Below are positions 1-64,000 of a stretch of 64,000 bases of DNA, one piece after another. Under the pieces are notes generated by a model. It was not told the DNA's origin. It saw only the letters and a list, made by a program, of their open reading frames with translations, and made no database searches. Position 1 is the stretch's first letter; the number at the start of each line of letters is the position of its first letter. Position numbers and translations under genes: made by a program. Origin of the DNA: a virus; the IMG/VR virus record IMGVR_UViG_3300014137_000003; one strand, written 5' to 3'.

Positions 1-75
1 TATTGTGATTTTGTTGCAGGCTCTGATGAAGGCGAAGGAACTGGCGTAGAATCTGTCGAAGAGACTAAAGAGTAG
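1..75 (+). CDS. 3' end of an upstream CDS (acidic C-terminus)
   Basis: Frame 1 is open from the window edge to TAG 73-75 (..GSDEGEGTGVESVEETKE*). Confidence 0.4.
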   Translation, partial: YCDFVAGSDEGEGTGVESVEETKE

Positions 76-85
76 GAGGTAGCTA

Positions 86-1120
86 ATGTCAATATTTAGT
101 CCAGAACAACACTACCGTATCGATGGTAAGGGTGGTGTTGGTATCTTTGGGGATACCCATTATTCGGCTATCTTCCAGGGAGCTCATAAGAACTATCAAG
201 AAGAAAACCTTGACTCTATGGCTCGTATGATTGAAATCGTAAAAGAAGAGAAGTTTGATGCCGTAGTCTTGTTAGGGGACTTGATTGGGGTATCTGAACG
301 GAACATTCGTGACTTACGTTTCCTTTTGGAGGTTACTGTATGGTTGCAGACTCTAAATAACCTAACTAATGGAAATGTATTTGTAGTTAGGGGTAACCAT
401 GACATTGGAGACTTCCCTCAGTTTGAGTATTTCAAGGGTGTAGGGTTGATTAAGACCCCTACAGAAGTAGACCATTATGTAGATGATGTACTTATGGTTC
501 GTTATCATTTTGTGGGGTATGGCGAGGAGAAACGTCCTCTTCGTTATGAGGGGGTAGAAGATGGTGTCCATCAAATTGTGTTTGGTCACAACGATTATTC
601 TATCTCTGGGGTAACTAACTGGTACTATTCTAAGAATGGAGTCGAGATGTCAACTCTTGGTAACTTTGAGCATGTATCTTGGGTTATCAGTGGGCATATT
701 CATCACCCTAGCCCAGATATCTATTCTCAAACAATTGGTAGCAATGAGGTATTCTTATTCTACCCAGGAGCGGTAAGTCGTGTAAGCTCTAGTGAACAAT
801 ATAATGATTGTTTCTACTTCAAGCTTTTCTATAACGAGGACGAAGGTGGCTTTGACTATGAGATTAAAAACTTCGGTCTTAAGCCTGCTAGTGAAGTTTT
901 TCTACAATCTAAGCTAGATGAAGAGAACCAAGAAGCCTTAGAAGAAGAGCTTGAGCGTAAGGAGTCTAACAAGCGTTTAACGGAAATTCTGAACGAGGCT
1001 ATGGGGTACAGGATTGTAACTGGGGATATGATGAAACAGATTGATAGTTTCCCTCACGCATCAGATGAGGCGAAGTCCTTAGCTAAGCAGTATTTACAAA
1101 ATGCAATAGATATGGTATAA
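86..1120 (+). CDS. Calcineurin-like metallophosphoesterase, SbcD/Mre11-type nuclease
   Basis: AGGAGG RBS upstream. Ordered phosphoesterase motifs GDTH / LLGDL / RGNHD / GHND / GHIHH, then a charged coiled-coil C-terminus. Confidence 0.7.
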   Translation: MSIFSPEQHYRIDGKGGVGIFGDTHYSAIFQGAHKNYQEENLDSMARMIEIVKEEKFDAVVLLGDLIGVSERNIRDLRFLLEVTVWLQTLNNLTNGNVFVVRGNHDIGDFPQFEYFKGVGLIKTPTEVDHYVDDVLMVRYHFVGYGEEKRPLRYEGVEDGVHQIVFGHNDYSISGVTNWYYSKNGVEMSTLGNFEHVSWVISGHIHHPSPDIYSQTIGSNEVFLFYPGAVSRVSSSEQYNDCFYFKLFYNEDEGGFDYEIKNFGLKPASEVFLQSKLDEENQEALEEELERKESNKRLTEILNEAMGYRIVTGDMMKQIDSFPHASDEAKSLAKQYLQNAIDMV

Positions 1121-1121
1121 T
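1113..1121 (+). promoter_or_regulatory. Extended -10 element TGgTATAAT
   Basis: Sits at the end of the SbcD-like gene, ~50 nt before the next start, and is followed by AGTAT. Confidence 0.4.
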
Positions 1122-1170
1122 AGTATATAGAAATTGTTTGTGGGTATCCACTAGAAGAAGGAGAAGAGAT

Positions 1171-1944
1171 TTGACAGATTTAGTACAACGCATTAAGGCA
1201 GTCAATGCTGAAAGTGAAAAAGTAAATAAAAGTTCCGTAGAAGCTCAAGCTAAACGTAAGTTGCTTCTACAACAGATTTCCGAAAAGGTATCTGCCTTTG
1301 AGGAAATGTATGGTATTAGTTTTCCGAGTATTAACAACTTAGAGGAGTTTGGTGCTTTTCTAAAGGATTTGCTCGATACACAGGAATCTAAATTGCAAGA
1401 ACAAGTTGAACGAGCTGAAAAGGTTATTGGGTTGATTAACTCAGGTAATATCGAAGAGGCTCAACAACTCTTGGGGTATAAACCTAAAGAAGTTCACCCT
1501 CTAAATAATGAGAAAGTTGCAGAGGATGTAGTAGAAGAAGTTAAGGAGGTTGCGAAAGAGGTACTCGAAGAAGACCTCCCTACTGAAGAAGTTCCAACAA
1601 CCCCTCAAGAAGTTGAAGTCCTCGAAGACCTTGACGGTGGTACTGACGAAGAGGAAGTTCGAGAGGTAGTAAAACCTACTAAACGTCCTCGTAAGCGTTC
1701 GGTTGCTACTACAAACTTCGATATGAACGAAGGTGGGGTATCTTTGGATGACCTTGATAGTGTTGCAGGTGAAGAGGCTAATGACTTTGCCACTGACTCT
1801 ATTGTAGAAGAGGAAGTCACAGAAGTTAAACGTCCTATTCGTCGTCGACGTCCACGAATCGTTAATTCAGACGAAGAAACTAGCACAATTTCTACAAGTA
1901 CTGCACCTATTAAAACTGGTGGTGAATTTAACTTTGGGGATTAA
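1171..1944 (+). CDS. Hypothetical acidic coiled-coil protein
   Basis: ORF is open from 1138. Best start is TTG 1171, 8 nt after GAAGGAG. Very acidic with RRRRPR/KRPRKR basic patches; no domain recognised. Confidence 0.55.
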   Translation: MTDLVQRIKAVNAESEKVNKSSVEAQAKRKLLLQQISEKVSAFEEMYGISFPSINNLEEFGAFLKDLLDTQESKLQEQVERAEKVIGLINSGNIEEAQQLLGYKPKEVHPLNNEKVAEDVVEEVKEVAKEVLEEDLPTEEVPTTPQEVEVLEDLDGGTDEEEVREVVKPTKRPRKRSVATTNFDMNEGGVSLDDLDSVAGEEANDFATDSIVEEEVTEVKRPIRRRRPRIVNSDEETSTISTSTAPIKTGGEFNFGD

Positions 1945-1959
1945 GGGGGTATAGTATAA

Positions 1960-3102
1960 ATGGCACATTTTTTCCTAGATTACGATAATTTGGTTTATTT
2001 GTTGGACAATGCAACGTCTGTAACTTCTGACTCAGCCCTTAAGGATGCTGATAAGACTGTCTTCTTCCTTATTAAGGATGAGGGTGAAAGTATTGCAGTA
2101 GCTAAAAACTCCGACTTGTTCATTCGTGTTAAGTTTATTCCAGAGCTTGTAAAAGAGGCTGGAAATGTTCAGGTAAACTCATCAGAACTTAGCAAAATCT
2201 TGGGTACTTTCTCTAACTTGAGTAGGACTCGTGTTGAATCTATCGAGTTCAAAGTTCATAAATCTAAGGTACAGGTAATTGTTCATGAGTCTGCTCTTGA
2301 TGAAGATTACCAAGACTTTGCAGGGGATACCTCTTATAGTCTTGATAGTATCAACATTAAGGAGAAGACTCTCCAAGACATTAGCGTTGAGTTTGACGAT
2401 GAAAATGCAGTAGACGTTGACTCAATGGAATTGGATATTGTCCTTTCCACTTTGCTACCTATCATGGATAGCAAGAAAGGTCTTAACAACAACCAAATTC
2501 ACTTTGCTAGCGATCAAATCTTTGTAATGGATAACCGTTCTCAAATCTTCTATAAGAATATCCTACCTGAAGTATTCAGTAATTCATCATTCCGTTACAC
2601 TTCTGTAGCTTATATGCGTAAGCTTATTCAAACGTCTAACCACTTGCGTGTAGTAATTAGTGGTAACAAGTTTGCTATCCGTTCTGAGAGTGGTGAGGTT
2701 GAAGCGTATATCAACCAACTAGGGGTACGTTTCAACTATAAACCAACGCTTGAGAAAATCACCAAAGAAAATGGTATCATTTTGGACCGTGCGTTCCTTA
2801 AGGATATTATCCGACGCCTTTCAATTATGGGTAGTGACCCTAAAGTCTCTATTCAAGAAGACGGTGTTCATATCACTACAGAAAGTTTCTCTCGTGTAAT
2901 TCCTATTAGTAATTCTAAAGGTAATGTGGAAGGTATGGAGTTTAAGGTTAACTCTTCATTGCTTGCATCTATGATTATTGGAGATGACTCAGTAATGAGT
3001 AATAACTTGTTCCTTTATCTCGAACCTGTGAAACCTCGTGGTATTCAGTTAACTATCTCGGACGATAGTGGAGCGTTCTTGTCTAATACTAAGGTATCTT
3101 AA
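1960..3102 (+). CDS. Hypothetical protein; weak sliding-clamp (DnaN-like) resemblance
   Basis: 380 aa, the size of a beta clamp. N-terminal pattern of alternating strands loosely resembles DnaN. No strict motif, so the function is a guess. Confidence 0.5.
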   Translation: MAHFFLDYDNLVYLLDNATSVTSDSALKDADKTVFFLIKDEGESIAVAKNSDLFIRVKFIPELVKEAGNVQVNSSELSKILGTFSNLSRTRVESIEFKVHKSKVQVIVHESALDEDYQDFAGDTSYSLDSINIKEKTLQDISVEFDDENAVDVDSMELDIVLSTLLPIMDSKKGLNNNQIHFASDQIFVMDNRSQIFYKNILPEVFSNSSFRYTSVAYMRKLIQTSNHLRVVISGNKFAIRSESGEVEAYINQLGVRFNYKPTLEKITKENGIILDRAFLKDIIRRLSIMGSDPKVSIQEDGVHITTESFSRVIPISNSKGNVEGMEFKVNSSLLASMIIGDDSVMSNNLFLYLEPVKPRGIQLTISDDSGAFLSNTKVS

Positions 3103-3131
3103 CTATCTGATTTAGTAGAAAGGAAATCTTA

Positions 3132-3824
3132 ATGGGGGTATATGCAACAACCATCACTTCGCTAAAGCGTGACTTAGTCGAAAAGGGGCGATTAGAGTCT
3201 CGTTTAGAGAAGCGACGTGAAGAAATTAAAGAGCAAAAACAAGAGTATGAGGACTTGGTGGCAGCTTCTAAGCTTATCTCAGCAGTAGCTGACAAACAGT
3301 CTTTGGATACTCTCGACTATATTACTGGTGTTATCAATAAAACTCTAGGAGAGTTGTTTAAGTCTGACACTCGACGTATCTTCTTGAAGAAACAGATGCA
3401 CGCAGGTCGATACGCTCACCTTAAGGTTCTACTTACAGATGCTGATGGTACTGAGTATGACATGATGTTGCAGTCTGGTACAGGTTTGCGACAAGTTATT
3501 TCATTCTTGTTCTGTATCTGCTTAATTCAAATTTCAGGTGGTCGTAAGCTATTCATTCAGGACGAGCTCTTAGGGGGTACTCACGGAGCAGCGAAAGAAG
3601 TGCTTAAGCAAATCATTAAAATCTTCGCTCAAGACTTCCAGTTTATCATGATTGAGTACGGCTTTGATGACCTAGGTAAAATCTATAGCGTAGAGAAACC
3701 TAATAAGTATGCTAATGTTTATGACCTTAGTGGTAAGGAATACGACCCGAAAGCAGTATTCTTGTTTACGGATGGTATAAGTTCTGCTGAAGGCAATATT
3801 GATTTAGCTGAAGTAGAAGAATAG
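3132..3824 (+). CDS. SMC/Rad50/SbcC-like ATPase C-terminal lobe (no Walker A)
   Basis: N-terminal coiled coil, then a signature-like QSGTG, Walker B LFIQDE and GGTH. No P-loop anywhere in the ORF. Confidence 0.4.
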   Translation: MGVYATTITSLKRDLVEKGRLESRLEKRREEIKEQKQEYEDLVAASKLISAVADKQSLDTLDYITGVINKTLGELFKSDTRRIFLKKQMHAGRYAHLKVLLTDADGTEYDMMLQSGTGLRQVISFLFCICLIQISGGRKLFIQDELLGGTHGAAKEVLKQIIKIFAQDFQFIMIEYGFDDLGKIYSVEKPNKYANVYDLSGKEYDPKAVFLFTDGISSAEGNIDLAEVEE

Positions 3825-3834
3825 GTTGAAAATT

Positions 3835-3856
3835 GGCTCCATTAGGAGTCTTTTTC
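3835..3856 (+). terminator. Rho-independent terminator
   Basis: GGCTCC-ATTA-GGAGTC stem-loop and T5. Confidence 0.6.
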
Positions 3857-3933
3857 TTTGTAAGGGGTAGATTCGAATATTGTATTTTCTGTAGAGTTTA
3901 TATATTATTTCCCGTAAGGAGGGTACTAATTTT

Positions 3934-5466
3934 ATGTCTTATGTTTATGATAAAGTAGTTACTTCATTAGGTGGCAAACCCTTAGTAAGTAGTACCAAAG
4001 AAGGTATAACTGTAAAGGGTTGGTCGCCTAATATGTTTAAGAGGGTAGCCATCTTGACGGATGGTATTGTAGTAGAGTATCATGGTAGTGTCTCTCGTAG
4101 TCGTGTTATACCTTTTAATATAGAAGATGTTAGTAAGGATTTAGCCCAAGGAGCTAAGTATAAGAACCCACTTCGTCCTCTTTTTGAGTTCAAGGCTTTG
4201 TCTTGTTTGGAAGAGTTATTAGTTTCTAGCTCTTTAGTAACTGATAAGATGGTAAATAACTTTATTTCCACTATCTCTGATACGCACAGGCTTAGGCGAG
4301 TAGGGGTACTCCCTATGGAAGTTAAGACTTCCGACATTTCTTCTCTTATTGAAAAGTGTAATGCTCAGGAAGGTGGCAAACATTTACTTCTTTCTGATTT
4401 TATAAATGGTAGCACTAAGATTTCAACTCACAATGAAGACTACTACACAAAATACTATCTACGTCCTACATTGTATGAGTTAGATAAGCCAGGTGGTAGT
4501 TTACGGAAGTATTTTGATAATGTAAAAGCTGAAGTCCTTTCTAAAAGAACTGAAAGCAACAAAGTTTCTCTAGTAAATTCTTACATTGAATACGATAAAA
4601 AGAATATTCGCTTTTGGAATAGTGTTGTTGATTTCTTAAACAATAAAGAAAATCCTACAAAGTATCCTAAGCTTTATACAACTTTGAAGGCTCATTCTGT
4701 TGCAAATAGTGGTTGTTATCTTGAGGGGCTTAAGGACTACTTTAGCTCACGTGGTACTAGCGACCCAATCTATAAGGTCTATAAAATCTTGGGGTATCTA
4801 GACACTAAGGGTTCTAGTAAACCTAACTCTGAGGCTAAAGGTTTCTTAAGAAAGATGGAATCTGTTGCAAATAATTCTTACACTTCTGTCTTAGAAGTAA
4901 TTAAGAAAGACAGCAATGGTTTATTAGGCAATCTTAAGTTACCTAAAGACTCTAGTCGCACTTACATAGTGATGTCAGTACTTGAGATTTTGAATTCCGA
5001 AACTGTCGGTACTGACAACAAAAAGGTCAAATCAGAATTCCGAGACTCTGAAGTAGAAGATGATGCAACTAAAGTTGCTAACGAAGAGTTGAAAGCTAGT
5101 ATCAAGAATTCTTTACCCGAGAGCCTAATGGTAGGGTTGTTTGACTTATGGGAGTCTCTACAAGATAGTTATAAGGAAACAGCAGGTATGCTCTTAACGG
5201 CAAAAGAAAGAGATTTCGATAAGAGGTTCTCTGAAAAGTCTTTGAGTGAGTTAGGTTTGCAACGTCATGCTGAAACCCTATCTCTATTGGGGTATTGTGG
5301 GGGTAGTGATTCCCTAGAAGGCTTGGTTGACTTATCGTTTACCGATGCTTTAAGCAGTCTCTGTCATATGGTAACGAGGGGTAGCTTAGCTGAGTTGCGT
5401 GCTGAGCCTTGGAAGAATCTTTCAGACACTGACAAATGTAGTTATATTATTGGGAGGATTAACTAG
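3934..5466 (+). CDS. Hypothetical protein
   Basis: 510-aa ORF with AAGGAGG RBS. Its stop overlaps the GTG start of the next gene (translational coupling). Confidence 0.75.
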   Translation: MSYVYDKVVTSLGGKPLVSSTKEGITVKGWSPNMFKRVAILTDGIVVEYHGSVSRSRVIPFNIEDVSKDLAQGAKYKNPLRPLFEFKALSCLEELLVSSSLVTDKMVNNFISTISDTHRLRRVGVLPMEVKTSDISSLIEKCNAQEGGKHLLLSDFINGSTKISTHNEDYYTKYYLRPTLYELDKPGGSLRKYFDNVKAEVLSKRTESNKVSLVNSYIEYDKKNIRFWNSVVDFLNNKENPTKYPKLYTTLKAHSVANSGCYLEGLKDYFSSRGTSDPIYKVYKILGYLDTKGSSKPNSEAKGFLRKMESVANNSYTSVLEVIKKDSNGLLGNLKLPKDSSRTYIVMSVLEILNSETVGTDNKKVKSEFRDSEVEDDATKVANEELKASIKNSLPESLMVGLFDLWESLQDSYKETAGMLLTAKERDFDKRFSEKSLSELGLQRHAETLSLLGYCGGSDSLEGLVDLSFTDALSSLCHMVTRGSLAELRAEPWKNLSDTDKCSYIIGRIN

Positions 5467-8400
5467 TGGCATATATTAAAGAAGTCCTTAGTGGCATTAA
5501 ACAATTAAATTCGCCTAACGAGGTCAAATCTATCGTAGTAGGTAAGGATTTTGTTTATCTACGAAAACACAAAGACGATGACCCTCAACCCAGTTTATTT
5601 ATACCGTTTGACCCTAGTTTGGTAGGTAGTGACGACCCTTTATTCTTCATGGACGAGAGGACCTATGGTACTGCCGAGGAGCTCTTTGTTTATGAGGGGT
5701 ATTCGCATTCTCCGATTATTGAGAGCTATATGCATAAGGCTACTGAAGAAAGGGCACGTCTATCTACTTTAATTATTGGTAGTAAAGAAGAGATTGATAC
5801 TTGTGCTAGTGGGGTAGATGCAGGGGCTAGTATAGAGGACTTAGGTTATTCTTATGCTAGATCGATTGTAGATTTCTCTCATATCTATCCTTTACAGCCC
5901 GAGCATTACTCTTGGGATGCCGTTGAGGGTCTTGAGTACTTTAGGGGAGTAGAGGAGCTTGTCGCCAACACGTATGGTACTGCTGAGGGTGAAGATGATT
6001 CTAGGGGTACTGAGGAAGTATCCGACGAGGACTTGGACGGTGTTGGGGGTACTAAAGAGCTAGATTCGGAAGAAGTAGAAGAAAGTACCCCTACAGCTGA
6101 TGATTATACCATCCAAGATGCCGTTGAGTACTATGCACCGCATATTGATACGGTAGTTTCTGATATTGTTTCTAACTACACAAAACTATTTAAAGCGGGG
6201 TATCAACTTAAGAGACCTGTTGGTGTTCTTGGTGAGCAGGGTGACTCGGGTAAACTTATGACTTTGAGTGGTAGTTCACAGACCTTTACGAAACCTAACC
6301 CAGTTATTCGTGCTTTATATCAGCTTACGGTTGCTGAATATAATTTGACGATACTTCCTTATCGTTCGGTTGACCATATCGCATCTATCATCGTAAACGG
6401 GGTAACTCCTGATGGGGCAACTATTTCTCCAGATACTCGATTGTACTTCCCTTATAAGATGCTAGAGTTTGCTTACGGTAGGAAGACACCTAAAGCAACT
6501 GAGGGTGGTAAAACTAACTATCCTAAGCACTCTGAAAAGTTGAACTGGGACGCTTATGCTAGTGAGGTAGACGAGAACTTACGTCAGGTTACTAGGGGTA
6601 TCGTTGCTAAAATTTTAGGAAACTTTGAAGACGTAGATTATTTTGATGCTAAGGTTGAGTCTAGTATTACTGAATCCTTAACTCGCTTTAAGGATGTGTT
6701 TACTACTTGTATTCTTGTAGGCGAGTTTCCTCTTATCAAAGGTTTACCATCCTTGTTAAAAGTTAGAACTCTTTTACCTTTTGAATTACATAATAATCAT
6801 AACGTAGCAACCGAGGCTATGAGGGTAGGTATTTCTTCTTTGGGAACCGATCCGTTTGAGGGTATTCCTATTCATGATGGGGTATATCACATGTACACCC
6901 ATGAGTATAATCACTCTTTAGCTAACAGTAAGCCAATGTATGCCTATCATGCAGCTAAATCTCTTAAAGAGTCAGGACACGAAGTAAATTATAAGAATAT
7001 GATTATCGGTCTTGGCTTGGATGATTCTATCTTGCAGAATGGTAGTGGTAATGTTAACCTCGTACCTAATATGAGCCACTTCTTAGTAGCAGGCTCTAGG
7101 GCAGGTAAGGGTGTTGACAGTATGGCAAAACTAGCAGCAGCACTTAAGTCAGGTAAACCTGTCTTTTACTTAGATAATAAGCCCGATATTGGTGCAGTTC
7201 TGTTAGATATTGAACCTAATGCCTTTGTTGTAAATGGTCAGTTGGTTACATCATCTGTCGATGGTGGTACTAATATTGGTGGTCACTTTATGGGTAGCTC
7301 AGCATTAGCTAATGTTAACCCTCAAGGTGTTCCGTCTTACTTATACAATTCTAGTGATGCCCTATTTAGGGGTAGGTCTTACAGTCAGTTGGGGGCAGTG
7401 TTCTACGCAAGAGCTTTGCAGTTGATTATGCTTATTACTTACTTTAGGACTCTAGACGATATTTCAGCTAAGATAGACTTAGGTGATAAGTCTAATGGTA
7501 TCGTTGCTTTCTTCGATGAGTTTAACGTAACACAGGATTCAGGTCTTGGACCTTTAATGCAAAAGATTTACTTCAACTATGCTAGAACAGATTATGCTGA
7601 GGCTGAGCGTAACGCCCAAGAGACTGGTAAGAAAAACTCTGTAAGGAAACCTAGTCAAAATGCCTATTGGGGTACTGCCTTTACTGAGTCCTTAAAGAAT
7701 ACGGCTATGATGTTAGCTGATGGTACTAAAGCAGGTTACATGAACGGGGAAGCAGCAGCGTCTGATATTTTTATTGTAGGTCAGGACTTACCAGATGTTA
7801 TTGAGTCTGCAGAAGATTTCGATGACTTCTTCCCAACTCACCGTGGTAAGAACACAGAACGTGCACAGTTTGCTAGTGGTAAAGGTAGTGGTAAGACTCA
7901 ACCTCTCGTTCCTTTAGTATCACCAGGTGGAGCTGATATCTTTGTGGGGTATAACCTTAAGCACTCAAATTACTTGAATCAGTCTCGTGGTTTCGCAAAA
8001 GACAAACTAGACAAAGATGCTCGTTTATTTGCTTATATTCCTACTTATAATAGGGGTACTAAGAAACAAATTGAAAGTGGTAACGAAGAGTTCGCTAGAA
8101 ATGTTCCTACTTATTATAAACCTCTCTTACTTTTAGCTGATGCTGATATGGATAAGTATTTTGTTAAGAATGCTATGTCCTATGCTATTGAGTCGGGTAT
8201 TGACGCTGAGTCTATTATCTTAGACAATGCTCAAGAGGATGAACAAGGTAACCCAATAAAATTTGAAAAACGTCAGTTTAGCGATAATAAGGGGCATAAG
8301 TATACAACAGAATATAGAATTCACCCAGCAGTAGGTTTTAAAGATTATTTAAATTATATTGGTATGGATGATTCTAGTATCTCTAGTTCCTTAAAAGCAG

Positions 8401-9812
8401 CAAGTAATATGGCTCAGCGTGTTGTATCTGCTCTAGGTTATGAGGGTACTTGGAGGGACTTCGTACAGGATTTGCGTCCAGAGTATATGCTCCATGCAAA
8501 TAATGTATTAGAATCCCTTAGAACTGGTAAACGTTTATCGGATTTGAATGCTAAAACATTCTCGGAGTTTAGGGAGGGGTATCCAGAAGCCTTCACAGTT
8601 TCCGATATTTCTCGATTAGGAGAGGAGACTGGTGAGTCTGATGTATCCTATGAAGATATTGACTTTGCAAGTTTAGGTAAAGCAGTCTATGCTAATTCTG
8701 AAAATGCATCAGCGGATGAAGTAGAGGAAATCTTCAAACAAGATGGCTTATTGGATGACATTGACCTAGGTAATGAGCATGATATTTATGATAATGCTCA
8801 AAGTGTTCAGTTCTCTCAAGAGGATCGCCTTAAGGATTTAACCATTTCGGATATTCAAAACCTTACTCCTAACGAGCAAAAAGCTATCTATGATATGCTT
8901 ATTGAAGGTTTAAAGAACAAGCCCGATATTGAAAATCCTAATGACGAACAACTAGGTTATGGTAAGCTAGGGGTAGCCTATGATAACTATGGTAGAGCTT
9001 ACAAGATTGACACATCTCAAGTAGATAAGACTTCTTCGGTTTATGATGATGTTATTCTAGACGATAATATCTCTAAACTAGACGGAAGTGTACATGAGGT
9101 TTCTTATCAGGCTCTAGTTAAAACTATAACAGAAAAGGCAGTAGCAGTAGCCAAAACTGGTGGTGGTTTTAAGACTATATCTGTTCTTGGTGGTGCTTTA
9201 GTTATCAATGAGGTAATGATTGGTCTCAAAATCCCTGAGAACCTTTTAGGTGGCTTACCAAGTAATGTAGCTGATGACATTAGAAGTGGTAGACTAGCTA
9301 AGTACTTTAATTGGAGGCTATTGCGTAGAAGTGGAGTAGTTACTTTGAAGGTAGATTCCTCTAGGTTTGTCTTTACAGAAATCTCAGAGGGTATGGGGTA
9401 TTCTAAGAACTTTAATGTTCAACAGTTATTTGAAGACTTACCAAGACTTCAAAAGTTTGTAGTAGGAAGCGAAGAATACACTAGAGCACGTGTTAATTCT
9501 ATTGCAAGAAACCAGGAAGAAGACCCCTTCTACCAACCTCGTAGGGCAGAGCAAGCTTACAGACTCTCTCAAGCTTGGTTAGGTAGTAAGAGGTTGGCAT
9601 CTTGGCAACGTGCTAATGATGTTTGGAAACGTAAAGACTTGGGTACTTTCCGTAAAGTCTTAAGTACGGTAGGTAATACAACTCTTGCAGGTGCTAGTGG
9701 GGCTACGGAAGCTACTGGTTGGGCTGGACGCAAACTCTTTAGAAGCGTAGGTCGTGCAGCTAGTGAGTTTAAGTCTATGCTTGATGACTCCAAGAACTTA
9801 GGAAAGAAATAG
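5466..9812 (+). CDS. Giant (1448 aa) P-loop ATPase, FtsK/HerA-like core
   Basis: GTG start after GGGAGG. SHFLVAGSRAGKGVDSMAKLAAALKSGKPVFYLDNKPD parallels the FtsK Walker A region (hhhAGxxGxGK...hhhDpK). Walker B is IVAFFDEF. Flanking regions of ~530 aa and ~700 aa are unassigned. Confidence 0.55.
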   Translation: MAYIKEVLSGIKQLNSPNEVKSIVVGKDFVYLRKHKDDDPQPSLFIPFDPSLVGSDDPLFFMDERTYGTAEELFVYEGYSHSPIIESYMHKATEERARLSTLIIGSKEEIDTCASGVDAGASIEDLGYSYARSIVDFSHIYPLQPEHYSWDAVEGLEYFRGVEELVANTYGTAEGEDDSRGTEEVSDEDLDGVGGTKELDSEEVEESTPTADDYTIQDAVEYYAPHIDTVVSDIVSNYTKLFKAGYQLKRPVGVLGEQGDSGKLMTLSGSSQTFTKPNPVIRALYQLTVAEYNLTILPYRSVDHIASIIVNGVTPDGATISPDTRLYFPYKMLEFAYGRKTPKATEGGKTNYPKHSEKLNWDAYASEVDENLRQVTRGIVAKILGNFEDVDYFDAKVESSITESLTRFKDVFTTCILVGEFPLIKGLPSLLKVRTLLPFELHNNHNVATEAMRVGISSLGTDPFEGIPIHDGVYHMYTHEYNHSLANSKPMYAYHAAKSLKESGHEVNYKNMIIGLGLDDSILQNGSGNVNLVPNMSHFLVAGSRAGKGVDSMAKLAAALKSGKPVFYLDNKPDIGAVLLDIEPNAFVVNGQLVTSSVDGGTNIGGHFMGSSALANVNPQGVPSYLYNSSDALFRGRSYSQLGAVFYARALQLIMLITYFRTLDDISAKIDLGDKSNGIVAFFDEFNVTQDSGLGPLMQKIYFNYARTDYAEAERNAQETGKKNSVRKPSQNAYWGTAFTESLKNTAMMLADGTKAGYMNGEAAASDIFIVGQDLPDVIESAEDFDDFFPTHRGKNTERAQFASGKGSGKTQPLVPLVSPGGADIFVGYNLKHSNYLNQSRGFAKDKLDKDARLFAYIPTYNRGTKKQIESGNEEFARNVPTYYKPLLLLADADMDKYFVKNAMSYAIESGIDAESIILDNAQEDEQGNPIKFEKRQFSDNKGHKYTTEYRIHPAVGFKDYLNYIGMDDSSISSSLKAASNMAQRVVSALGYEGTWRDFVQDLRPEYMLHANNVLESLRTGKRLSDLNAKTFSEFREGYPEAFTVSDISRLGEETGESDVSYEDIDFASLGKAVYANSENASADEVEEIFKQDGLLDDIDLGNEHDIYDNAQSVQFSQEDRLKDLTISDIQNLTPNEQKAIYDMLIEGLKNKPDIENPNDEQLGYGKLGVAYDNYGRAYKIDTSQVDKTSSVYDDVILDDNISKLDGSVHEVSYQALVKTITEKAVAVAKTGGGFKTISVLGGALVINEVMIGLKIPENLLGGLPSNVADDIRSGRLAKYFNWRLLRRSGVVTLKVDSSRFVFTEISEGMGYSKNFNVQQLFEDLPRLQKFVVGSEEYTRARVNSIARNQEEDPFYQPRRAEQAYRLSQAWLGSKRLASWQRANDVWKRKDLGTFRKVLSTVGNTTLAGASGATEATGWAGRKLFRSVGRAASEFKSMLDDSKNLGKK

Positions 9813-12524: not shown

Positions 12525-12959
12525 ATGCTATTAGTTAAGAATAGGAAGGCTTATCATGATTACTCTGTACTCCGTACCTTGGAGTGTGGGGTTGTTTTGG
12601 TAGGTAGTGAAGTTAAATCGCTAAAGGCTCATCACGGAGTCCTCAAAGGTTCTTGGGGGTATATTTCTAACGAAGAAGTGTTCTTAAAGGGGGTACACAT
12701 TCCGAAATGGGGTACGTCTGTTTGGAACCATGAAGAAGAAAGAGACCGTAAATTACTCCTACATAAAAAGGAAATTAAGGGTTTAGCGAAAGACTTGTCT
12801 CTTGGCGATGGGTTAACTCTTGTACCTTTAGAGCTTAAAGTTGTAAAAGGTCGAATAAAGTGCACTCTTGGCTTGTGTAAAGGTAAGAAAAACTATGATA
12901 AGCGTCAAGCTCTGAAAGAAAGAGACATCAAACGTAGTCTAGAAAGGTTAGTTAGGTAG
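12525..12959 (+). CDS. smpB: SsrA-binding protein SmpB (trans-translation factor)
   Basis: NRKAYHDY, GSEVKSLK, RDRKLLLHKKEI, LVPLEL and KGKKNYDKRQALKERD are collinear with bacterial SmpB. AGGAG RBS. Confidence 0.9.
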   Translation: MLLVKNRKAYHDYSVLRTLECGVVLVGSEVKSLKAHHGVLKGSWGYISNEEVFLKGVHIPKWGTSVWNHEEERDRKLLLHKKEIKGLAKDLSLGDGLTLVPLELKVVKGRIKCTLGLCKGKKNYDKRQALKERDIKRSLERLVR

Positions 12960-13941: not shown

Positions 13942-13985
13942 ATCATTTGTATGCAGCTGACTAGGTAACTGCCTAGTCCTTATAT

Positions 13986-14057
13986 GCCCTCATAGTATAA
14001 CGGAGAGTACACAGGTTTCCTAAACCTATGATGGGGGTTCGATTCCCTCTGAGGGCA
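13986..14057 (+). tRNA. tRNA-Arg (anticodon CCU, reads AGG)
   Basis: Manual cloverleaf, 72 nt, no encoded CCA. Acceptor GCCCTCA/TGAGGGC; D-arm GTAT..GTAC with GG loop; anticodon stem AGGT/ACCT with loop TT-CCT-AA; T-arm GGGGG-TTCGATT-CCCTC; discriminator A. Confidence 0.8.
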
Positions 14058-14121
14058 TTCTACTAGTTAAGGCTAGTGGAAGACTGACTTTCTGCTGAAG
14101 TCGATGGTAACTCCTTAGTAT

Positions 14122-31548: not shown

Positions 31549-31979
31549 GAGTAATTGAGCTCCGTATCTCTGGTGACAGGGGTATGTCCTTACAAGCGTT
31601 AAACACTAGGAAGTCCTTAAAGCCCTACTGCTAAAACAGAGTTGGAAACGACAAATGGTAAAGTAGCGAAAGCGGAAAGAAGAGTAGGGATACCAATAAG
31701 CTGAAATAAAAGCTATAACTATTCTTGGTTATGGTGCTAAGTTGGTGTAAATAGGGTATTTAGTTACGAACCTCTAAGGCAAATTAGCTATGAGGCACGT
31801 TCATCGACTAGGTTCTTGGAAGGAACCGACCGGAAGGTCTTAATGTAGCCTAGCAAGTGCAGGCGAAAAATGCTTGGGCTTTGTTTATAAGCAAAGTTTA
31901 ACACATAGTCACGTCTTACATCGTAAGGGTGTAAGCTACTGAAATAGTAGGGTTAGGGGTAACGTCCTAGCAAAGATCG
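31549..31979 (+). ncRNA. ORF-less group I intron (boundaries inferred, +/- a few nt)
   Basis: R-like core GTTCATCGACTAGG (31799-31812) and S-like CATAGTC (31904-31910) can form P7 GACTA/TAGTC. GACC-GGAA-GGTC tetraloop hairpin. The preceding exon ends in T and the intron ends in G. Splicing restores SPPYF|LENYGE. Confidence 0.65.
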
Positions 31980-41994: not shown

Positions 41995-42136
41995 TTTTGG
42001 TAGAATAGTTTGTAATTTTTGTATAATTATTGTAAAATTTATATATATAGTTTAGGTAGCTTGCTAGTTGGTTTAGTTATTTATATAGTAATAATTTTTA
42101 TTAGTCTTACTAATTATATGAGAAAGGAACTTAATA

Positions 42137-42556: not shown

Positions 42557-42568
42557 GGAGGTGTAGGT

Positions 42569-43057
42569 TTGTTTTCATTAAAAGATACAGAAACAAATGT
42601 AGAATATACTTTTGAAGACAATGTGGCTTTAAGGGAACAGTATATGTTAGGTTTGTTATTGCCTATTAGGGGTAGAGAGACCTTTAAGGTAGTAGTGCGA
42701 AAGACTTCTTGTTTTGATTATTCTATGGTTAATAAGATACTTAATCGAATCGGTTCTCCAACTAAATACTATAAATACTACAAGTCTGGCGATGTTCACG
42801 TTCTTGAAGGGTTCACTGATGAGAATGAGTATAGACTCTATAAGAAGGAAGAATTACGTCAAAATGTCTTCAATGCCTTCTTTTTTGTAATTGCATTTAT
42901 TGTCATTTACCTATTCCAGAGGTATGTATTTGATATACAAAGTCTTTTGTTAGCTAGTTTCTATTGGTTTCTTGTTTTAGGGTGTGTTATGTTTGTTTTA
43001 TCTTTACTCCCAGATAAACCTAAGAATATTGTCATCTTAGATTGTGATAAGTTATAA
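42569..43057 (+). CDS. Membrane protein, paralog family C (copy 1)
   Basis: TTG start after GGAGGTG. Shares ALREQYMLGLLLPIRG.E.FKVVVR, RIGSP.KYYKYY and VLEGFTDE.EY plus 2 C-terminal TM helices with 43129..43674. Confidence 0.65.
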   Translation: MFSLKDTETNVEYTFEDNVALREQYMLGLLLPIRGRETFKVVVRKTSCFDYSMVNKILNRIGSPTKYYKYYKSGDVHVLEGFTDENEYRLYKKEELRQNVFNAFFFVIAFIVIYLFQRYVFDIQSLLLASFYWFLVLGCVMFVLSLLPDKPKNIVILDCDKL

Positions 43058-43128
43058 GGGGTATCTCTTTGGAAGAGATAGGATTATTGAAGCAAGCATG
43101 CCAGATGATTATTAAGGAGTAAAGTATT

Positions 43129-43674
43129 ATGATTTCATTTAAGGATTTATTTTGGGAAAAATGGTGTAAGTTTCTAGAAAGGGAGCGTTTAAAGTCTGAG
43201 AAAAGTAAACGTGACTTTGAGGAGACTCTCGCTCTAAGAGAGCAGTATATGCTAGGTCTGTTATTGCCTATTAGGGGTAAAGAGTCCTTTAAAGTAGTAG
43301 TTAGAGACCCTTTCAACTTTGACTATTCTATGGTTAAGGAGTTACTCCATCGTATTGGCTCCCCTGCTAAGTATTACAAATACTATGAGTATGACAGTGT
43401 TTGTGTCCTTGAGGGTTTTACTGACGAGAAAGAGTATAAGTCCTACAAGAGAGCAGAGCTGTATCAACTTGCATCAATGGTATTTTTCTATGTAGTTTTA
43501 TTTATTATTGTCTATATATTCCAAAGGTATGTGTATGGAATATATGGTATTTTTATAGCCAGCCTTTATTTGTCAGTCTCAGCTTATCTTGTTGTAGGAA
43601 TTGGTGTATTTGTTTTATCTTTATTTCCTAGTGAATCAGGGAACAAATCTCTCATAGGGTATGATATATTATGA
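43129..43674 (+). CDS. Membrane protein, paralog family C (copy 2)
   Basis: Same conserved blocks and TM layout as 42569..43057. Confidence 0.65.
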   Translation: MISFKDLFWEKWCKFLERERLKSEKSKRDFEETLALREQYMLGLLLPIRGKESFKVVVRDPFNFDYSMVKELLHRIGSPAKYYKYYEYDSVCVLEGFTDEKEYKSYKRAELYQLASMVFFYVVLFIIVYIFQRYVYGIYGIFIASLYLSVSAYLVVGIGVFVLSLFPSESGNKSLIGYDIL

Positions 43675-44096
43675 GTCCTCAAGTAATAGAGTTTTTGACT
43701 GCTCTTAAAATGTTCGATGGTTTCGTTGTAACGGAAGACTATAAGGTTTATCATCGTGATAATTTCTTAATGTCTTTCGATTCTGACGGCTCCATCTTTT
43801 TGTCTTATAGGTTATCTTGCGATCAGGCTTATCGTAATTATACTCAACTTATCAGAGACCAGATTAAAACTAATTCACTAGGTAATTTCTCCTTATGTGA
43901 TAGCTATCCTGTCAGTGGTAAGTATATAATGATTTCTGAGATGTATTATGCTAACTTATTGGCTAATTACGAGGGGTATCGCATTGAGTGCAAGGAGTAT
44001 CCTCATGATTTAGCTAGTTTGTCTGCAGCGTTGGATATCTGTCTAGGGGTAAAATGGCAGATAACTTATCAGTTAGTTGAGAGTATTCTTAAGTAA
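43671..44096 (+). CDS. Hypothetical protein
   Basis: 141-aa ORF with an ATGA overlap. Confidence 0.6.
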   Translation: MSPQVIEFLTALKMFDGFVVTEDYKVYHRDNFLMSFDSDGSIFLSYRLSCDQAYRNYTQLIRDQIKTNSLGNFSLCDSYPVSGKYIMISEMYYANLLANYEGYRIECKEYPHDLASLSAALDICLGVKWQITYQLVESILK

Positions 44097-44108
44097 GGAG
44101 TTTTAGTT

Positions 44109-44465
44109 ATGGCATTGTATTCTTATATTGTTTGTGAGAAGCGTTATCAAGAGAGTAACTCTCCTATAATTCCTCTAAAGAAAGGCTTACAAAATAACTT
44201 AGGTGTATATTTTAGCTTAGAAACGGCGTATGAACAACTTAAAGGGTATGCTAACAGTCTAAGGATTGAAGAAGTACCACTTATGATTAGGTCTTTAGAG
44301 GAGTTAAGTCAAGAATTTTATGAAAATAAGTATGTTACTAACTTCATTCTTTTAGTTGCTCAAGAGAATCAGGTAAGTTTTGTTCCGTCTGAGCCCAGCA
44401 TTAAAATTTATAATAAGGTAGACTATTATATTCAGGTAATAGTTCCTAATCAAATTATCTATTAG
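44109..44465 (+). CDS. Hypothetical protein
   Basis: 118-aa ORF with AAGGAG RBS. Confidence 0.6.
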   Translation: MALYSYIVCEKRYQESNSPIIPLKKGLQNNLGVYFSLETAYEQLKGYANSLRIEEVPLMIRSLEELSQEFYENKYVTNFILLVAQENQVSFVPSEPSIKIYNKVDYYIQVIVPNQIIY

Positions 44466-44714
44466 TAGTTACCCTCATCCTATATACTCTGGTATGGTTG
44501 AGGGTATTTCTTTTATATAATGTATCTTTGAGAGATGTTTTGCCTATTGGGGTATTTAAGAGTTGTTCTACTTACAATTAAATAAGGGTACTATTTTTAT
44601 AGCTACCTAGAACTAAGGGTGTGTCCTTTAGTTGTGGGTATCTATAAGATATTTTTGTTACCTGAGGCAATTAACCAACTAACTAAACAACTATCAGGTA
44701 GAAAGATATATAAA

Positions 44715-45758
44715 ATGACTAATTTTATAACTGTAAGCAGTCAAGGTGGTTCATCAAAGACTGTAGTGAATGTAAATTCACTTAATCGTGTTTCTTACCA
44801 CCTTAGTAAGTCAGCTCGTGAAGTAGTTGAATGTTATCTTAACTACGGAGTGTTGGGGTTATTTAAAGGAAATGATTTTTATTCTGTTTTAGACGTTAAT
44901 GGTTCCAATATTAACACTTTAGACTCCATTGATGAAGTAGAGGACAAATTAAATGGAGTAGTAGGTAGTGGTCACGGTATGTTTTATATCCCTAATGCTG
45001 TGTTAAAGTCAAATGAGGAAGTCTTATCTAGACCTTACATGTTAGCTAGTTACATGAGCGAGTTTGCACATTTTGTTTACAAAGATAAGGTATTTCGAGG
45101 ACCAGATAAAGACGTAAGTTTGGCTTGGACAGACGAGATGCTTAATTCGTTAATTTCTCATTATAGAGATTATGCAAAAGAGATACCAGAAGATTTTGTT
45201 TACGAGTTTTCTTGTCCTTTAGATTATTTTCCAACAGATCGTGTTGAATTTATCAAAGGAAAGCCTTGTATAGGTATTCCTTTAAAGATTGCTAAGAATC
45301 TAAAAATTGGAACAGATTTCGGAATATCACTTATAACAGACTTATCTAGCTTTGATTTGAAGTATATAACTGCTAAGAGGTGTGTATCTCCTAGTCGTGT
45401 ATCTGATGAAGGGAAGGGTAGTGTAGTAGGTGTAAGTGATTATAATAGTGTTCTAGTTGACATTTCTTTCCCGTTTAAAGTAATACTAACTGTAGAATTC
45501 CTTATTAAGTATATGGTAATTATTTTAAAGGAAGCTTGTGGAGTAGACTATGCAGAGAAGTTTTTAGATGGTTTGTTCACTGTTCTTTGTGATGTTGAGA
45601 CTGGTGGGCTATTTGATTGTTTGTCTAGCAGTCAGGCAGCGGACTACCTTGAAGTTAAAAACAAGTCTACTGTAAGTGCTGATTCTTATACGGTTAAGGG
45701 CGATTACGCTTATGTACCCCTAAAGGTAAATTTGGGAGGTAGTTATGGCAAACTATAA
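44715..45758 (+). CDS. Hypothetical protein (start uncertain: ATG 44715 or GTG 44619)
   Basis: Long ORF. The first 32 codons of the track version are hydrophobic or odd and lack an RBS. Confidence 0.6.
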   Translation: MTNFITVSSQGGSSKTVVNVNSLNRVSYHLSKSAREVVECYLNYGVLGLFKGNDFYSVLDVNGSNINTLDSIDEVEDKLNGVVGSGHGMFYIPNAVLKSNEEVLSRPYMLASYMSEFAHFVYKDKVFRGPDKDVSLAWTDEMLNSLISHYRDYAKEIPEDFVYEFSCPLDYFPTDRVEFIKGKPCIGIPLKIAKNLKIGTDFGISLITDLSSFDLKYITAKRCVSPSRVSDEGKGSVVGVSDYNSVLVDISFPFKVILTVEFLIKYMVIILKEACGVDYAEKFLDGLFTVLCDVETGGLFDCLSSSQAADYLEVKNKSTVSADSYTVKGDYAYVPLKVNLGGSYGKL

Positions 45759-48250: not shown

Positions 48251-48358
48251 ATTTTGTGAATAGGGTATAATAAAATAGAAATATTTATTTTTTGCTTATG
48301 GGGGTATCTTCCTTACCCCTAGTAGTAAACTTTATAAAAGAAAGGCTAACTGTATAGA

Positions 48359-49678: not shown

Positions 49679-49688
49679 GGGGTATTAG

Positions 49689-61928: not shown

Positions 61929-61937
61929 GTAAACAAT

Positions 61938-61960
61938 GAGGTCTTATGACCTCTTTTATT
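61938..61960 (+). terminator. Rho-independent terminator
   Basis: GAGGTC-TTAT-GACCTC stem-loop and a T-rich run. Confidence 0.8.
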
Positions 61961-62054
61961 TTTGTTTTCCGAATCTATCATCTCTTCTCTTAAATTGTTA
62001 TACTCTTTGTGTATTTCAAAAATACAGTTTTATATCTATATTTTGAGGTGACTT

Positions 62055-64000
62055 ATGAAAGAAATTAAGTTAGTTAGTAAACAAGGTTTCCGTATGTGGA
62101 AATCAGGTAAAATTTGGTTAACTTCTGGTGCCGTTGCAGGTGTGGCAGTAGTAGCCCTTGCAGGAGGTACTGTTAAAGCGGATGAAAATACTGCAGCAAC
62201 AACTTCGGGTGCACCGACAACTGCCGTAACTGCTCCAGCTCCTGCAGCAACAACTGCACCAGCAGCTCCGGTGGCAGCTACTACAACTCCAGCTCCAGCA
62301 GCAACAACTCCAGCTCCAGCAGCAACTGCTGAAACTCCTGCAGCTACAACAACTGCTCCAGCAACTTCAACTGCTCCATCTGAACCTACTGGCGTAGCCG
62401 TAACTGAGGGTTCTATTACAAATGATACTGCCACTGGTTTGGCAGCTAATAACCTTAAGGATGCAGCAGCAGGTCGTTCTGAAGAAGGAAAACAAGCTGA
62501 TTCTAACGCAGGTAAAGTTACTGGTGAAACATCAGTATCTATCGACCACAAAGAAGTAACTGACGCAGCTAAAAAGGCTGAAGGTGTTGGTGTAAAAGTG
62601 GTTCAAGACCCTACATCTGTAGCTCCTACAGCATCAAATGCATCACAAGCTGAAAAATCTAAAGGTTCAATCGTAGCTAAAGAGCATGCAAAAGCAGAAG
62701 AATTGAAATCAACTGCTACTGCACATTCAACTGCAGTGTCTAACTGGACAGCAGAAAAGAATTCTGTAGTTAAAGCAAATGAAGATTTGAATAATGCTCA
62801 CAAATCAGCAGTCGAAGCTTACAACAAATTTGTATCAACTTTAGATGCAGATACTGCAGCAGTAGTTGCAAAACACAAAGATGCTATCATCAAAACTACT
62901 GAAAAAGTACAAAACCTTGCTGACGGTTCTACCGTAGAGGGGTATCAAGCTTACATTAAATCACTCGCTGATCAACAAGCTTTGAACAAACAAGCTATTG
63001 CTGATTACTTGGCTAAAAAGGCAGAATTCGATGCAACTTCTGCTAAAGCTAAAGCAACTGTAGCAGAAAATGCTAGTCTTTCTGCTAGTGTAGTAGCTAA
63101 GAACAACAGCCTTTCTGCAAGTGTTGTAGCTAAAAACAACAGTCTTTCTGCAAGTGCAGTAGCAGAAACTGCTAGTCGTTCTAACTCTGCGAAAGCTGAA
63201 AACGAACGTTTGTCTCTATCAGCACAAAAAGCTACTGATGGTACTAACGCTACTGCATCAAACGCAGCTAAAAAAGTCAATGACGAAGCTAATGCCTACA
63301 ACAAATCTGTTATGGAAGCAGCAGGTCTTCAATGGACTGGTGATTACGCTAAAGATAGTGCCACTGTAGAAGCTTACAACTCTAAGAAATCAAAAGAAGC
63401 TAACTCTTCTGAAGACCCAGTATTTAACGGTGGTTACGACCGTAATCAAGCTCTTCCAGCAGCAGCTAACGGTTACACACCTAGCGGATCTTCAACTATG
63501 TTGAGCAAGGTTGAAGTTGCACCAGGTATTGAAGCCATCGCAACTGGTGACCTTACACAACACGGTGCTAAAGTTCACTTGCGTGGTGATAATGTTAACC
63601 CAGCTAAAATCGTTACAAAAGTAAACTGGGGTAACGTCGAACTTGAAGGTGATAACAAACGTACTTTCGTACCAGGTGACAACAATGACATTTGGGGTAA
63701 CACTTATGGATATGCAAGTGGTGGAGCTAATCGTTTCTACATTGTAAACCAACTTCAATGGTACAAGATTCCTAATGGTGCCACTACAATGGATGGTACA
63801 GTTCATGACCTTTGGGTAATGTTCCACAAAGATGCAACAGGTTTGCACCCAGCTTATCAAACTGGTGAAGTAGCCGTTTGGAACGCAAATGGTGCAGTTA
63901 ACGCCATTGACGGTGGTACAGAACACCTTAGCGACCGCCCAGGGGATGGTATTCGTGCAGTCTACTCTCTAGACACACCTGACAACCATGACCCAGAAGT
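62055..64000 (+). CDS. Cell-surface adhesin, antigen I/II-like (5' part; runs off the window)
   Basis: Not in the ORF track because there is no stop in the window. ATG 62055 after GAGGTG. KxYKxGKxW-type signal (GFRMWKSGKIWL). TAPA/TTPAPAA repeats; Ala-rich heptad region with 33-bp repeats (SLSASVVAKNN x3); then a lectin-like V-region-type segment (WGNVELEGDNKRTF..RFYIVNQLQWYKIPNG). Confidence 0.7.
   Translation, partial: MKEIKLVSKQGFRMWKSGKIWLTSGAVAGVAVVALAGGTVKADENTAATTSGAPTTAVTAPAPAATTAPAAPVAATTTPAPAATTPAPAATAETPAATTTAPATSTAPSEPTGVAVTEGSITNDTATGLAANNLKDAAAGRSEEGKQADSNAGKVTGETSVSIDHKEVTDAAKKAEGVGVKVVQDPTSVAPTASNASQAEKSKGSIVAKEHAKAEELKSTATAHSTAVSNWTAEKNSVVKANEDLNNAHKSAVEAYNKFVSTLDADTAAVVAKHKDAIIKTTEKVQNLADGSTVEGYQAYIKSLADQQALNKQAIADYLAKKAEFDATSAKAKATVAENASLSASVVAKNNSLSASVVAKNNSLSASAVAETASRSNSAKAENERLSLSAQKATDGTNATASNAAKKVNDEANAYNKSVMEAAGLQWTGDYAKDSATVEAYNSKKSKEANSSEDPVFNGGYDRNQALPAAANGYTPSGSSTMLSKVEVAPGIEAIATGDLTQHGAKVHLRGDNVNPAKIVTKVNWGNVELEGDNKRTFVPGDNNDIWGNTYGYASGGANRFYIVNQLQWYKIPNGATTMDGTVHDLWVMFHKDATGLHPAYQTGEVAVWNANGAVNAIDGGTEHLSDRPGDGIRAVYSLDTPDNHDPE

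Follow-up and report, generated by a model that had tools for sequence, protein, structure and literature searches.

GGGGTA is a strand-polar, evenly spaced, nucleic-acid-level signal in an IMG/VR element and in the conjugative plasmid pXO16

We find that GGGGTA is a strand-polar, selected signal at the level of the nucleic acid, and no protein or codon effect, throughout the window, by which we mean the whole 64,000-nucleotide stretch (positions 1-64000) of IMG/VR record IMGVR_UViG_3300014137_000003. By protein homology and gene order this window is a distant relative of pXO16, the 350-kb conjugative plasmid of Bacillus thuringiensis israelensis, and the word is a clade-specific version of a family-wide GGGTA/GGTA core that is evenly spaced and common to pXO16, features that lie beyond what an original prediction, made from the letters of the window, had described. 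An exact census gives 159 copies of GGGGTA on the + strand and 8 on the - strand (read as TACCCC on +), making it the most abundant of all hexamers in DNA of 37.5% GC, with a density of 2.5 per kb; the wider core GGGTA is found 249 times on the + strand and 27 times on the - strand, at 3.9 per kb. The over-representation and polarity claimed earlier from hand counts are real and stronger than stated there. The 18 copies counted in 1-5,400 are exact, as are the 0 and 1 copies of TACCCC in 1-5,400 and 30,000-35,120; the 19 GGGGTA reported for the latter stretch come down to 17, and the extrapolated total of ~200 was somewhat high. The copies are distributed as follows.

1..64000, + strand: GGGGTA copies, in the context W-GGGGTA-T/c, with a mean spacing of 401 bp and a longest gap of 1,229 bp.

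6086..6091 (first copy), then 25587, 32983, 37659, 45715, 48314, 56215 and 61553, - strand: reverse-orientation copies, their number at the level of the codon-aware null.

The enrichment survives every null model applied. Base composition predicts 15.2 copies on the + strand, and dinucleotide-preserving shuffles, with both strands pooled, give 27.3±5.0 with a maximum of 39, compared to 167 observed. Shuffling codon order within genes raises the expectation to 43.6±3.4, and a synonymous-codon shuffle that keeps the proteins and the codon usage of each gene raises it to 58.8±4.7, which leaves the observed count at z=21, with the strands unequal at 159:8; in a maximal-order Markov model 115.5 copies are expected and GGGGTA is still the highest-ranked hexamer (z=9). 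The 8 copies of TACCCC are not fewer than the 4-5 of the codon-aware null, so the strand asymmetry reflects enrichment on the + strand with no extra avoidance on the - strand. The motif falls in all three reading frames (61/42/39), and the 17 copies outside open reading frames (ORFs), among them the intergenic copies at 1946, 3864, 40452 and 48301, whose positions had been given correctly, amount to 2.43 per kb, compared to 2.49 per kb in coding DNA. Use of all frames, equal non-coding density and the excess over synonymous shuffles together indicate that the signal acts at the DNA/RNA level, as had been proposed from its presence in every frame.

The copies are also spaced more evenly than chance allows. 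The coefficient of variation (CV) of GGGGTA spacing in the window is 0.71, compared to 0.99±0.08 for random points (z=-3.7), and 2000 random placements never gave a largest gap below 1,291 bp, longer than the longest gap observed. pXO16 has the same CV of 0.71 (z=-7.3), with a largest gap of 2,071 bp where ~3,750 bp is expected; this 2.07 kb was likewise never reached in 2000 random placements. Spacings below 100 bp are depleted, and abundant control words driven by codon usage, e.g., AGAAGA, are clustered (CV >1). Such even spacing fits a need for one site per interval, on the scale of an Okazaki fragment.

Individual copies are conserved as well. In codon alignments of orthologous genes between the window and its relatives, with anagram hexamers, hexamers with at least four G and GGG-containing hexamers of the same genes as controls, an 80%-identical relative retains 62% of the window's GGGGTA copies and 24-28% of control hexamers (p=2e-6). 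At positions with identical amino acids, retention is 76% for GGGGTA and 43% for the controls (p=7.5e-5). The pattern recurs in two more distant relatives, and a fourth shows the same trend, which is not significant. GGGGTA is thus conserved 2-3 times as well as composition-matched hexamers, and its sites are under purifying selection, synonymous positions included; this excess conservation points to a selected signal that is read by an element-encoded factor.

The last 2 kb of the window separate the motif from strand composition.

61929..64000, + strand: 5' part of an antigen I/II-type LPXTG adhesin gene, with GC skew ~0; copies at 62939, 63628 and 63694 on the + strand and none on the - strand.

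The three copies noticed earlier in this adhesin gene are confirmed, and the complete gene, present in a 99% identical contig, has a GC skew of -0.01, 8 GGGGTA and 0 TACCC. Full polarity in a gene of zero skew indicates that the motif is no by-product of skew.

pXO16 displays the same signal around a complete 349.6-kb circle, on which all 454 annotated genes lie on one strand. The gene strand carries 658 GGGGTA and 5 TACCCC, compared to 61 and 12 expected from composition; every 10-kb bin holds 13-26 copies, and the polarity never switches. The GC skew is +0.16 to +0.24 throughout the circle, and the commonest octamer of the plasmid is AGGGGTAG (232:0). Use of one glycine codon is also affected, with 44% of GGG codons in the window and 56% in pXO16 lying inside the motif. 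A second strongly polar tetramer was seen on the pXO16 coding strand, where CTGC occurs 57 times and GCAG 903 times (341 and 731 expected); this polarity may be driven by codons or reflect avoidance of a site in one orientation. pXO16 is reported to transfer single-stranded DNA, and for plasmids that it mobilises an intact, correctly oriented single-strand origin matters (PMC6199540). Neither a relaxase nor an origin of transfer (oriT) has been identified on it (PMC9673590), and oriT-less plasmids and chromosomal DNA are moved as well, far less often than pXO16 itself (PMC9673590, PMC6199540).

Relatives were found through homologues of a giant 1448-aa protein of the window (5466-9812), and ~24-kb stretches from 40-odd of them (labelled L plus a number) were compared. 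When all hexamers are scanned without prior choice against synonymous shuffles, a GGGTA-containing word (z=7-21) is the strongest outlier in every low-GC relative that has GC skew and genes in a single orientation, in a form that depends on the clade.

GGGGTA: preferred word in the window's clade, pXO16, L021 and L022.

AGGGTA(T): preferred word in L011, L012, L014, L015 and L061.

GGGTAT(C): preferred word in L020, L027 and L013.

A-GGTATCGC: preferred word in L043 and L056.

The core common to all clades is GGTA, within a family-wide form (A/G)GGGTA(T), and GTA is invariant in every variant. Motif-bearing contigs, from metagenome-assembled genomes or listed as viral, include ones assigned to Mogibacterium, Clostridia and Lachnospiraceae. 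In L043 and L056, which are IMG/VR contigs of 45% GC, the polar word has moved to A-GGTATCGC (GGTATC 46:2, GTATCG 44:3), which has only GGTATC in common with the GGGGTATC of the window. GC skew reaches 0.35-0.44 over 20 kb in several relatives (L011-L016 and L061), far beyond what is typical of chromosomes. Relatives of high GC (55-62%), which have genes on both strands and no skew, retain the giant protein and show no such word. In L016, whose giant protein is 25% identical, the genes share a single orientation and the GC skew is 0.44, yet GGGTA is not enriched; TAGAGG stands at 38:0 there, yet is no outlier against synonymous shuffles, and L016 may have lost the signal or use another.

DNA from outside the family lacks the word. 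The co-resident B. thuringiensis plasmid pBtic235 has 7 GGGGTA where 8.2 are expected, and a strongly skewed, 23% GC gut Clostridiales chromosome segment has 2 GGGTA where 9.7 are expected, this control being an unrelated gut Firmicute segment reached through an SmpB homologue rather than DNA from the hosts of the motif-bearing elements. A hexamer scan of phage T7 gives no such word. Absence from control DNA indicates that the word belongs to the elements and not to their hosts, and the drift of its flanks by clade points to a co-evolving reader, which is probably encoded by the element. Any mechanism must accommodate a nucleic acid target on one strand of the whole replicon, present every 0.3-0.8 kb with gaps below ~2 kb.

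We tentatively favor a reading in which GGGGTA is the recognition and start site of an element-encoded primase of DnaG/T7 type. This is possible rather than probable, and priming stood unranked among the candidates of the original prediction. Genes and GC skew are unidirectional, and replication and single-strand transfer presumably are likewise. Under the usual skew rule the G-rich + strand would be the lagging-strand template of a unidirectional fork, and it would probably also be the strand that enters the recipient as single-stranded DNA; always copied discontinuously and transferred, it would be the only strand in need of repeated priming. The zinc ribbon of the primase would read 5'-GTA-3', with the A cryptic, as that of T7 reads 5'-GTC-3', and a short C-rich primer, pppACCC(C), would be made across the G run, which would give so short a primer a stable hybrid. 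Since a G-rich site arises by chance only about once per 4-6 kb per strand at 33-38% GC, selection would have to plant one every 0.3-0.8 kb. Here we infer the primase as reader, the identity of the transferred strand and unidirectional replication.

The closest parallel is the gene 4 primase of phage T7. Its zinc-binding domain reads 5'-GTC-3' on the lagging-strand template, and pppACCC is made at 5'-GGGTC-3' (PMC9198812); a single substitution in this domain, H33A, leads to recognition of d(GTA)/d(GTG) (PMC2978363), and usual primase start sites are triplets with a central T (PMC10250227). GGGTA is one cryptic base away from GGGTC, the strongest T7 site. Like our motif, the T7 sites (GGGTC, TGGTC and GTGTC) are words of pentamer scale read on a single-stranded template, with a G-rich 5' part as template for a C-rich primer, and with a G-T-N triplet that ends in a cryptic base. 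Densities are also alike at ~4 per kb; in T7, chance alone at 48% GC accounts for the 161 copies (4.0 per kb) of the three pentamers on the top strand.

The gene content of pXO16 also includes the parts of a T7-like replisome. The plasmid encodes a family A polymerase with a proofreading 3'-5' exonuclease, a DnaB-like helicase (DnaB_C; WP_001162832), gyrase, ligase, a stand-alone DnaG-type zinc ribbon (PF01807; WP_000365721) and a stand-alone Toprim_2 protein (PF13155; WP_000389279), and its polymerase, helicase, zinc ribbon and Toprim protein match the T7 set. A Toprim homologue is found in the same gene order in the motif-bearing relative L061. The window itself encodes an ArdC-like protein and, of PC4-like type, a single-strand binding protein, both of which we count in favor of priming. 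Directly upstream of the Toprim_2 gene, L061 carries a gene for a 1126-aa RecD-like (P-loop) helicase (2617-6983); the PLSDB table lists no gene in the corresponding 4.4 kb of pXO16 (40087-45310).

Several observations weigh against this primase reading. We know of no sequence-specific primase that leaves such a footprint, and the T7 sites themselves are neither enriched nor skewed (GGGTC 39:55, TGGTC 79:62, GTGTC 43:42), unlike a motif that is about tenfold enriched, >95% polar and evenly spaced. No primase gene was found in the window or in ~18 kb of flanking sequence of the 99% identical, 180.8-kb contig, and searches by zinc-ribbon and Toprim patterns did not extend into the window's clade. 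With the zinc ribbon of pXO16 as query, a word-index search of proteins returned Bacillus relatives only; the pXO16 replication proteins, compared by local tblastn with every locus fetched, matched only gene-order neighbors; and a Toprim alignment scan of IMG/VR did not match the window's contig. The L043/L056 clade specifies bases 3' of GTA (A-GGTATCGC), which is unexpected with one cryptic base. Polarity on the G-rich strand is equally expected of signals that guide a translocase or attenuate a nuclease. Finally, a search of the window and relatives gave no genuine minus-strand gene or inverted block, every minus-strand ORF resembling a spurious low-complexity antisense ORF, so that replication could not be told apart from transcription.

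Of the alternatives, the one that survives best is a polar guide or transfer signal for a DNA motor, in which a coupling or translocase ATPase is loaded or directed by the motif, although we regard it as doubtful. The candidates would be the giant P-loop protein, which is unclassified, and the FtsK/SpoIIIE-domain protein encoded in the pXO16 transfer locus; the motif, standing in for a missing single oriT, would resemble the FtsK-orienting polar sequences (KOPS), the SpoIIIE recognition sequences (SRS) or the repeats read by TraB of Streptomyces. KOPS and SRS are octamers found about once per 10 kb of host chromosomes, switch polarity at dif and are read by a gamma domain. Our motif is similarly G-rich, skewed to the leading strand, genome-wide, frame-independent and maintained by selection, but it is a 5-7-mer present every 0.25-0.5 kb of a mobile element, at ~30 times the density of KOPS and with uniform polarity (658:5). 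That it is element-specific, evenly spaced, fully polar and switch-free around the circle is compatible with a motor, as is the failure to identify a relaxase or oriT in pXO16 (PMC9673590), and the window does encode the giant P-loop protein that defines the family.

The proteins themselves argue otherwise. The pXO16 FtsK/SpoIIIE-domain protein matches PF01580 only, and Pfam shows no gamma (KOPS-reading) domain on it. The giant protein has an invariant Walker A-like AGSRAGKGV and an FFDEF motif (Walker A/B-like residues) and no recognizable translocase domain: searched in three segments it has no Pfam match even at E<=1, a profile search of PDB sequences gives no match, and an AlphaFold model of its P-loop core has a mean pLDDT of 40.6, too poor to use. 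Nothing beyond the P-loop signature supports the "FtsK/HerA-like" label that this ORF had been given, and the FtsK/KOPS mechanism, the headline candidate at that stage, fails the tests applied here, with no recognizable translocase or gamma domain, no polarity switch and a density far from that of KOPS. Moreover, the giant protein, a hallmark gene of the family, is retained by the high-GC relatives that lack the motif. In the TraB recognition sequences (clt), too, a short word is repeated and is read by a conjugation motor of FtsK-like type, and the analogy would account for efficient self-transfer with neither relaxase nor oriT; those sequences, however, are clustered in one locus and serve double-stranded transfer, whereas the motif is dispersed over the whole replicon and pXO16 reportedly transfers single strands, a mode with no known motor that is guided by sequence.

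A broader formulation, which we also hold to be rather doubtful, is that the motif is a novel type of architecture-imparting sequence, one of a mobile element and not of a chromosome. As a polar cis-signal dispersed over the molecule, it would take the place of one oriT or origin-type site and allow an element-encoded machine to process the whole 180-350 kb one way. The reader could be the giant P-loop protein, a primase that travels with the DNA or the coupling ATPase of FtsK-like type. If true, a dispersed signal of this kind would explain why a relaxase and oriT have not been found in pXO16, and why genes, GC skew and motif all run co-linear.

A Chi-like function is unlikely. Here a helicase-nuclease would be attenuated at the motif, and broken forks and free ends of the element would go to repair rather than be degraded; the enzyme could be host AddAB or an element-encoded set (SbcCD-like, UvrD-like, RecJ-like), and the motif might also serve as a mark of "self". 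Chi words of RecBCD and AddAB are host-specific and enriched in the core genome of the host. They are polar, over-represented on the leading strand and short in Firmicutes, as our motif is; the polarity on the G-rich (leading) strand is the one productive for Chi, the density is similar to that of short Firmicute Chi words, and a conserved block encoding an SbcD-like phosphoesterase, an AAA_23 ATPase, a UvrD-like helicase and a DHH/RecJ-like protein adjoins the giant gene in all relatives. Known Chi words differ even among Bacilli, however, while elements of Bacilli share their core with those of Clostridia-type hosts; pBtic235, co-resident in B. thuringiensis, is not enriched; and AGCGG, the known Chi word of Bacillus subtilis, is under-represented in pXO16 (83 versus 147 expected). 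Host Chi, another candidate of the original prediction, is unlikely on these grounds. On the UvrD-like protein we detected neither a Chi reader of AddB/RecC type nor a nuclease domain, and Chi distributions are not known to be regular; both the 95-99% skew and the regular spacing exceed descriptions of Chi. DNA uptake sequences and uptake signal sequences (DUS/USS), which mark "self" DNA, are likewise short words at ~1 per kb, far above chance and in all frames. Those, however, are chromosomal, non-polar and read by the competence machinery, unlike a word with strand ratios of 159:8 in the window and 658:5 in pXO16.

We consider a role in RNA improbable. In that case GGGGUA, present in every transcript, would be an internal Shine-Dalgarno-like or 30S site (STAB-SD) or the site of an RNA-binding protein. 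GGGGU pairs with the anti-Shine-Dalgarno sequence through one wobble pair, GGGGT occupies the Shine-Dalgarno position at 8 of 60 gene starts in the window, and strand and transcript direction are inseparable in this family. An example follows.

49679..49684, + strand: GGGGTA over a ribosome-binding site (GGGGGTATTAG-ATG), with further cases at 1946, 50525 and 57022.

Against this, the usual Shine-Dalgarno sequence here is GGAGG, the conserved core is GGTA rather than the G run, and neither AGGGTA nor GGTATCGC is Shine-Dalgarno-like. The density is equal in intergenic DNA and in DNA rich in tRNA and transfer-messenger RNA (tmRNA) genes, a copy lies in a probable intron, and RNA offers no obvious reason for even spacing with gaps of at most 1-2 kb.

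Still more improbable, in our judgment, is a one-strand target of DNA modification, where an element-encoded methyltransferase or other modifier leaves an epigenetic tag. A non-palindromic hexamer is typical of one-strand modification sites, and one window ORF matches S-adenosylmethionine-dependent methyltransferase families together with a phage DNA-methyltransferase family, but protective marking explains neither the tenfold enrichment nor the strict polarity nor the even spacing. The CAGCAG (EcoP15I) site of phage T7 is comparable as a non-palindromic hexamer in one orientation (0:36) in a genome with all genes on one strand, a bias that reflects avoidance of head-to-head site pairs. It differs in being only about fourfold above expectation on one strand, with neither even spacing nor family-wide conservation. 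A functionless by-product of composition, codon usage or context-specific mutation bias is effectively refuted: GC skew and one-strand coding do inflate G-rich words on the + strand, and the codon-aware null already reaches ~59, yet the count stands at z=21 over that synonymous null, synonymous positions are conserved, the spacing is even where codon-driven words are clustered, and the motif persists at zero skew in the adhesin gene and is absent from equally skewed control DNA.

Genome-wide polar words such as KOPS and Chi, an over-represented class to which we assign this signal, are known for chromosomes and host machines. What is new here is a polar word carried by a mobile element, dense, regularly spaced and with clade-specific variants; the element brings its own word at 10-30 times the density of KOPS or Chi, with even spacing and with purifying selection that can be measured. 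No report of it came up in full-text searches that covered the motif, pXO16 and words with strand bias on conjugative plasmids, two primary pXO16 papers lying outside their coverage. The family is broad and almost uncharacterized, extending from pXO16 of B. thuringiensis to oral and gut Clostridia-type contigs listed as viral in IMG/VR, and the motif provides a cheap sequence marker for its members in metagenomes. It also offers a handle on the copying and transfer of a 350-kb plasmid for which neither relaxase nor oriT nor replication origin has been identified, and on why all 454 of its genes face one way; as pXO16 is genetically tractable, these hypotheses are directly testable.

The kinship of the window with pXO16 rests on the giant 1448-aa protein, which matches a pXO16 protein (NC_018516.1) with 24.5% identity, and on conserved gene order around it. 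The window has no DNA-level match in phage or plasmid collections; IMG/VR holds the 99% identical contig, of 180.8 kb (IMGVR_UViG_3300008274_000007), and a relative at 79% is part of a contig of 236 kb that was binned as Mogibacterium. Besides the ArdC-like protein, which is predicted to act in anti-restriction, and the PC4-like protein, the window encodes partition proteins of ParB-like and ParM-like type, helicases (UvrD-like and SF2), a 5'-3' exonuclease and a DHH protein resembling RecJ, along with SmpB, tRNA-Arg(CCU) and a Ser/Thr kinase that has FHA and PP2C partners. No match to capsid or terminase families was found among its proteins. Further features of the window are listed here.

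12656..12714, + strand: tightest GGGGTA cluster, with copies at 12656, 12690 and 12709, in or beside the SmpB-homologue gene.

13985..14058, + strand: tRNA-Arg(CCU), after the HU gene and at the same position in all scanned relatives of the window's clade.

31560..31935, + strand: probable group I intron (Rfam RF00028, full-length, E=4e-7, 35.8 bits compared to a gathering score of 50), with a GGGGTA copy at 31579.

48301..48319, no strand assigned: inverted pair GGGGTA-TCTTCCT-TACCCC, the sole such pair, intergenic and before the SF2 helicase gene.

The inverted pair is present as originally described and includes one of the only 8 reverse-orientation copies. The intron match sits between ORFs 30664-31554 and 32658-33017; of the two motif copies earlier placed inside the intron, that at 31579 does lie within this sub-threshold match, while that at 31956 falls, together with a copy at 32060, in the ORF-free DNA that follows it. 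Two window ORFs match HNH endonuclease families. The position of tRNA-Arg(CCU) was scanned in L010, L013, L018-L020, L024, L026 and L027. AGG makes up 27% of Arg codons in the window, compared to 5-9% in controls, and the tRNA may offset this unusually high use; a tie to GGGGTA is only suggestive.

In the 99% identical contig, tRNAs and a tmRNA were found over 10 kb upstream of the window, and adhesin genes downstream. The upstream region (L060 2267-9485, ~4-11 kb upstream of the window start) contains the element's own tmRNA (tag AKTVQPVEMAA) and an array of 7-8 tRNAs, which with the SmpB homologue (window 12525-12959) would make up a private trans-translation kit, as in huge phages. Two LPXTG surface proteins were noted (window 61929-64000 and L065 5180-13037), one of them with antigen I/II C2, C-terminal and adhesin P1 N domains typical of oral streptococci; such predicted adhesins fit an aggregation-type mating system and an oral host. 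Short palindromes are strongly avoided, with CGCG, GCGC and GGCC at 0 each in the window (74 expected each), CCGG at 4 and GATC at 29 (212 expected), and in pXO16 with GGCC at 0 (248 expected), GATC at 1 (1004 expected) and CGCG at 4, an extreme avoidance that looks like broad evasion of restriction sites.

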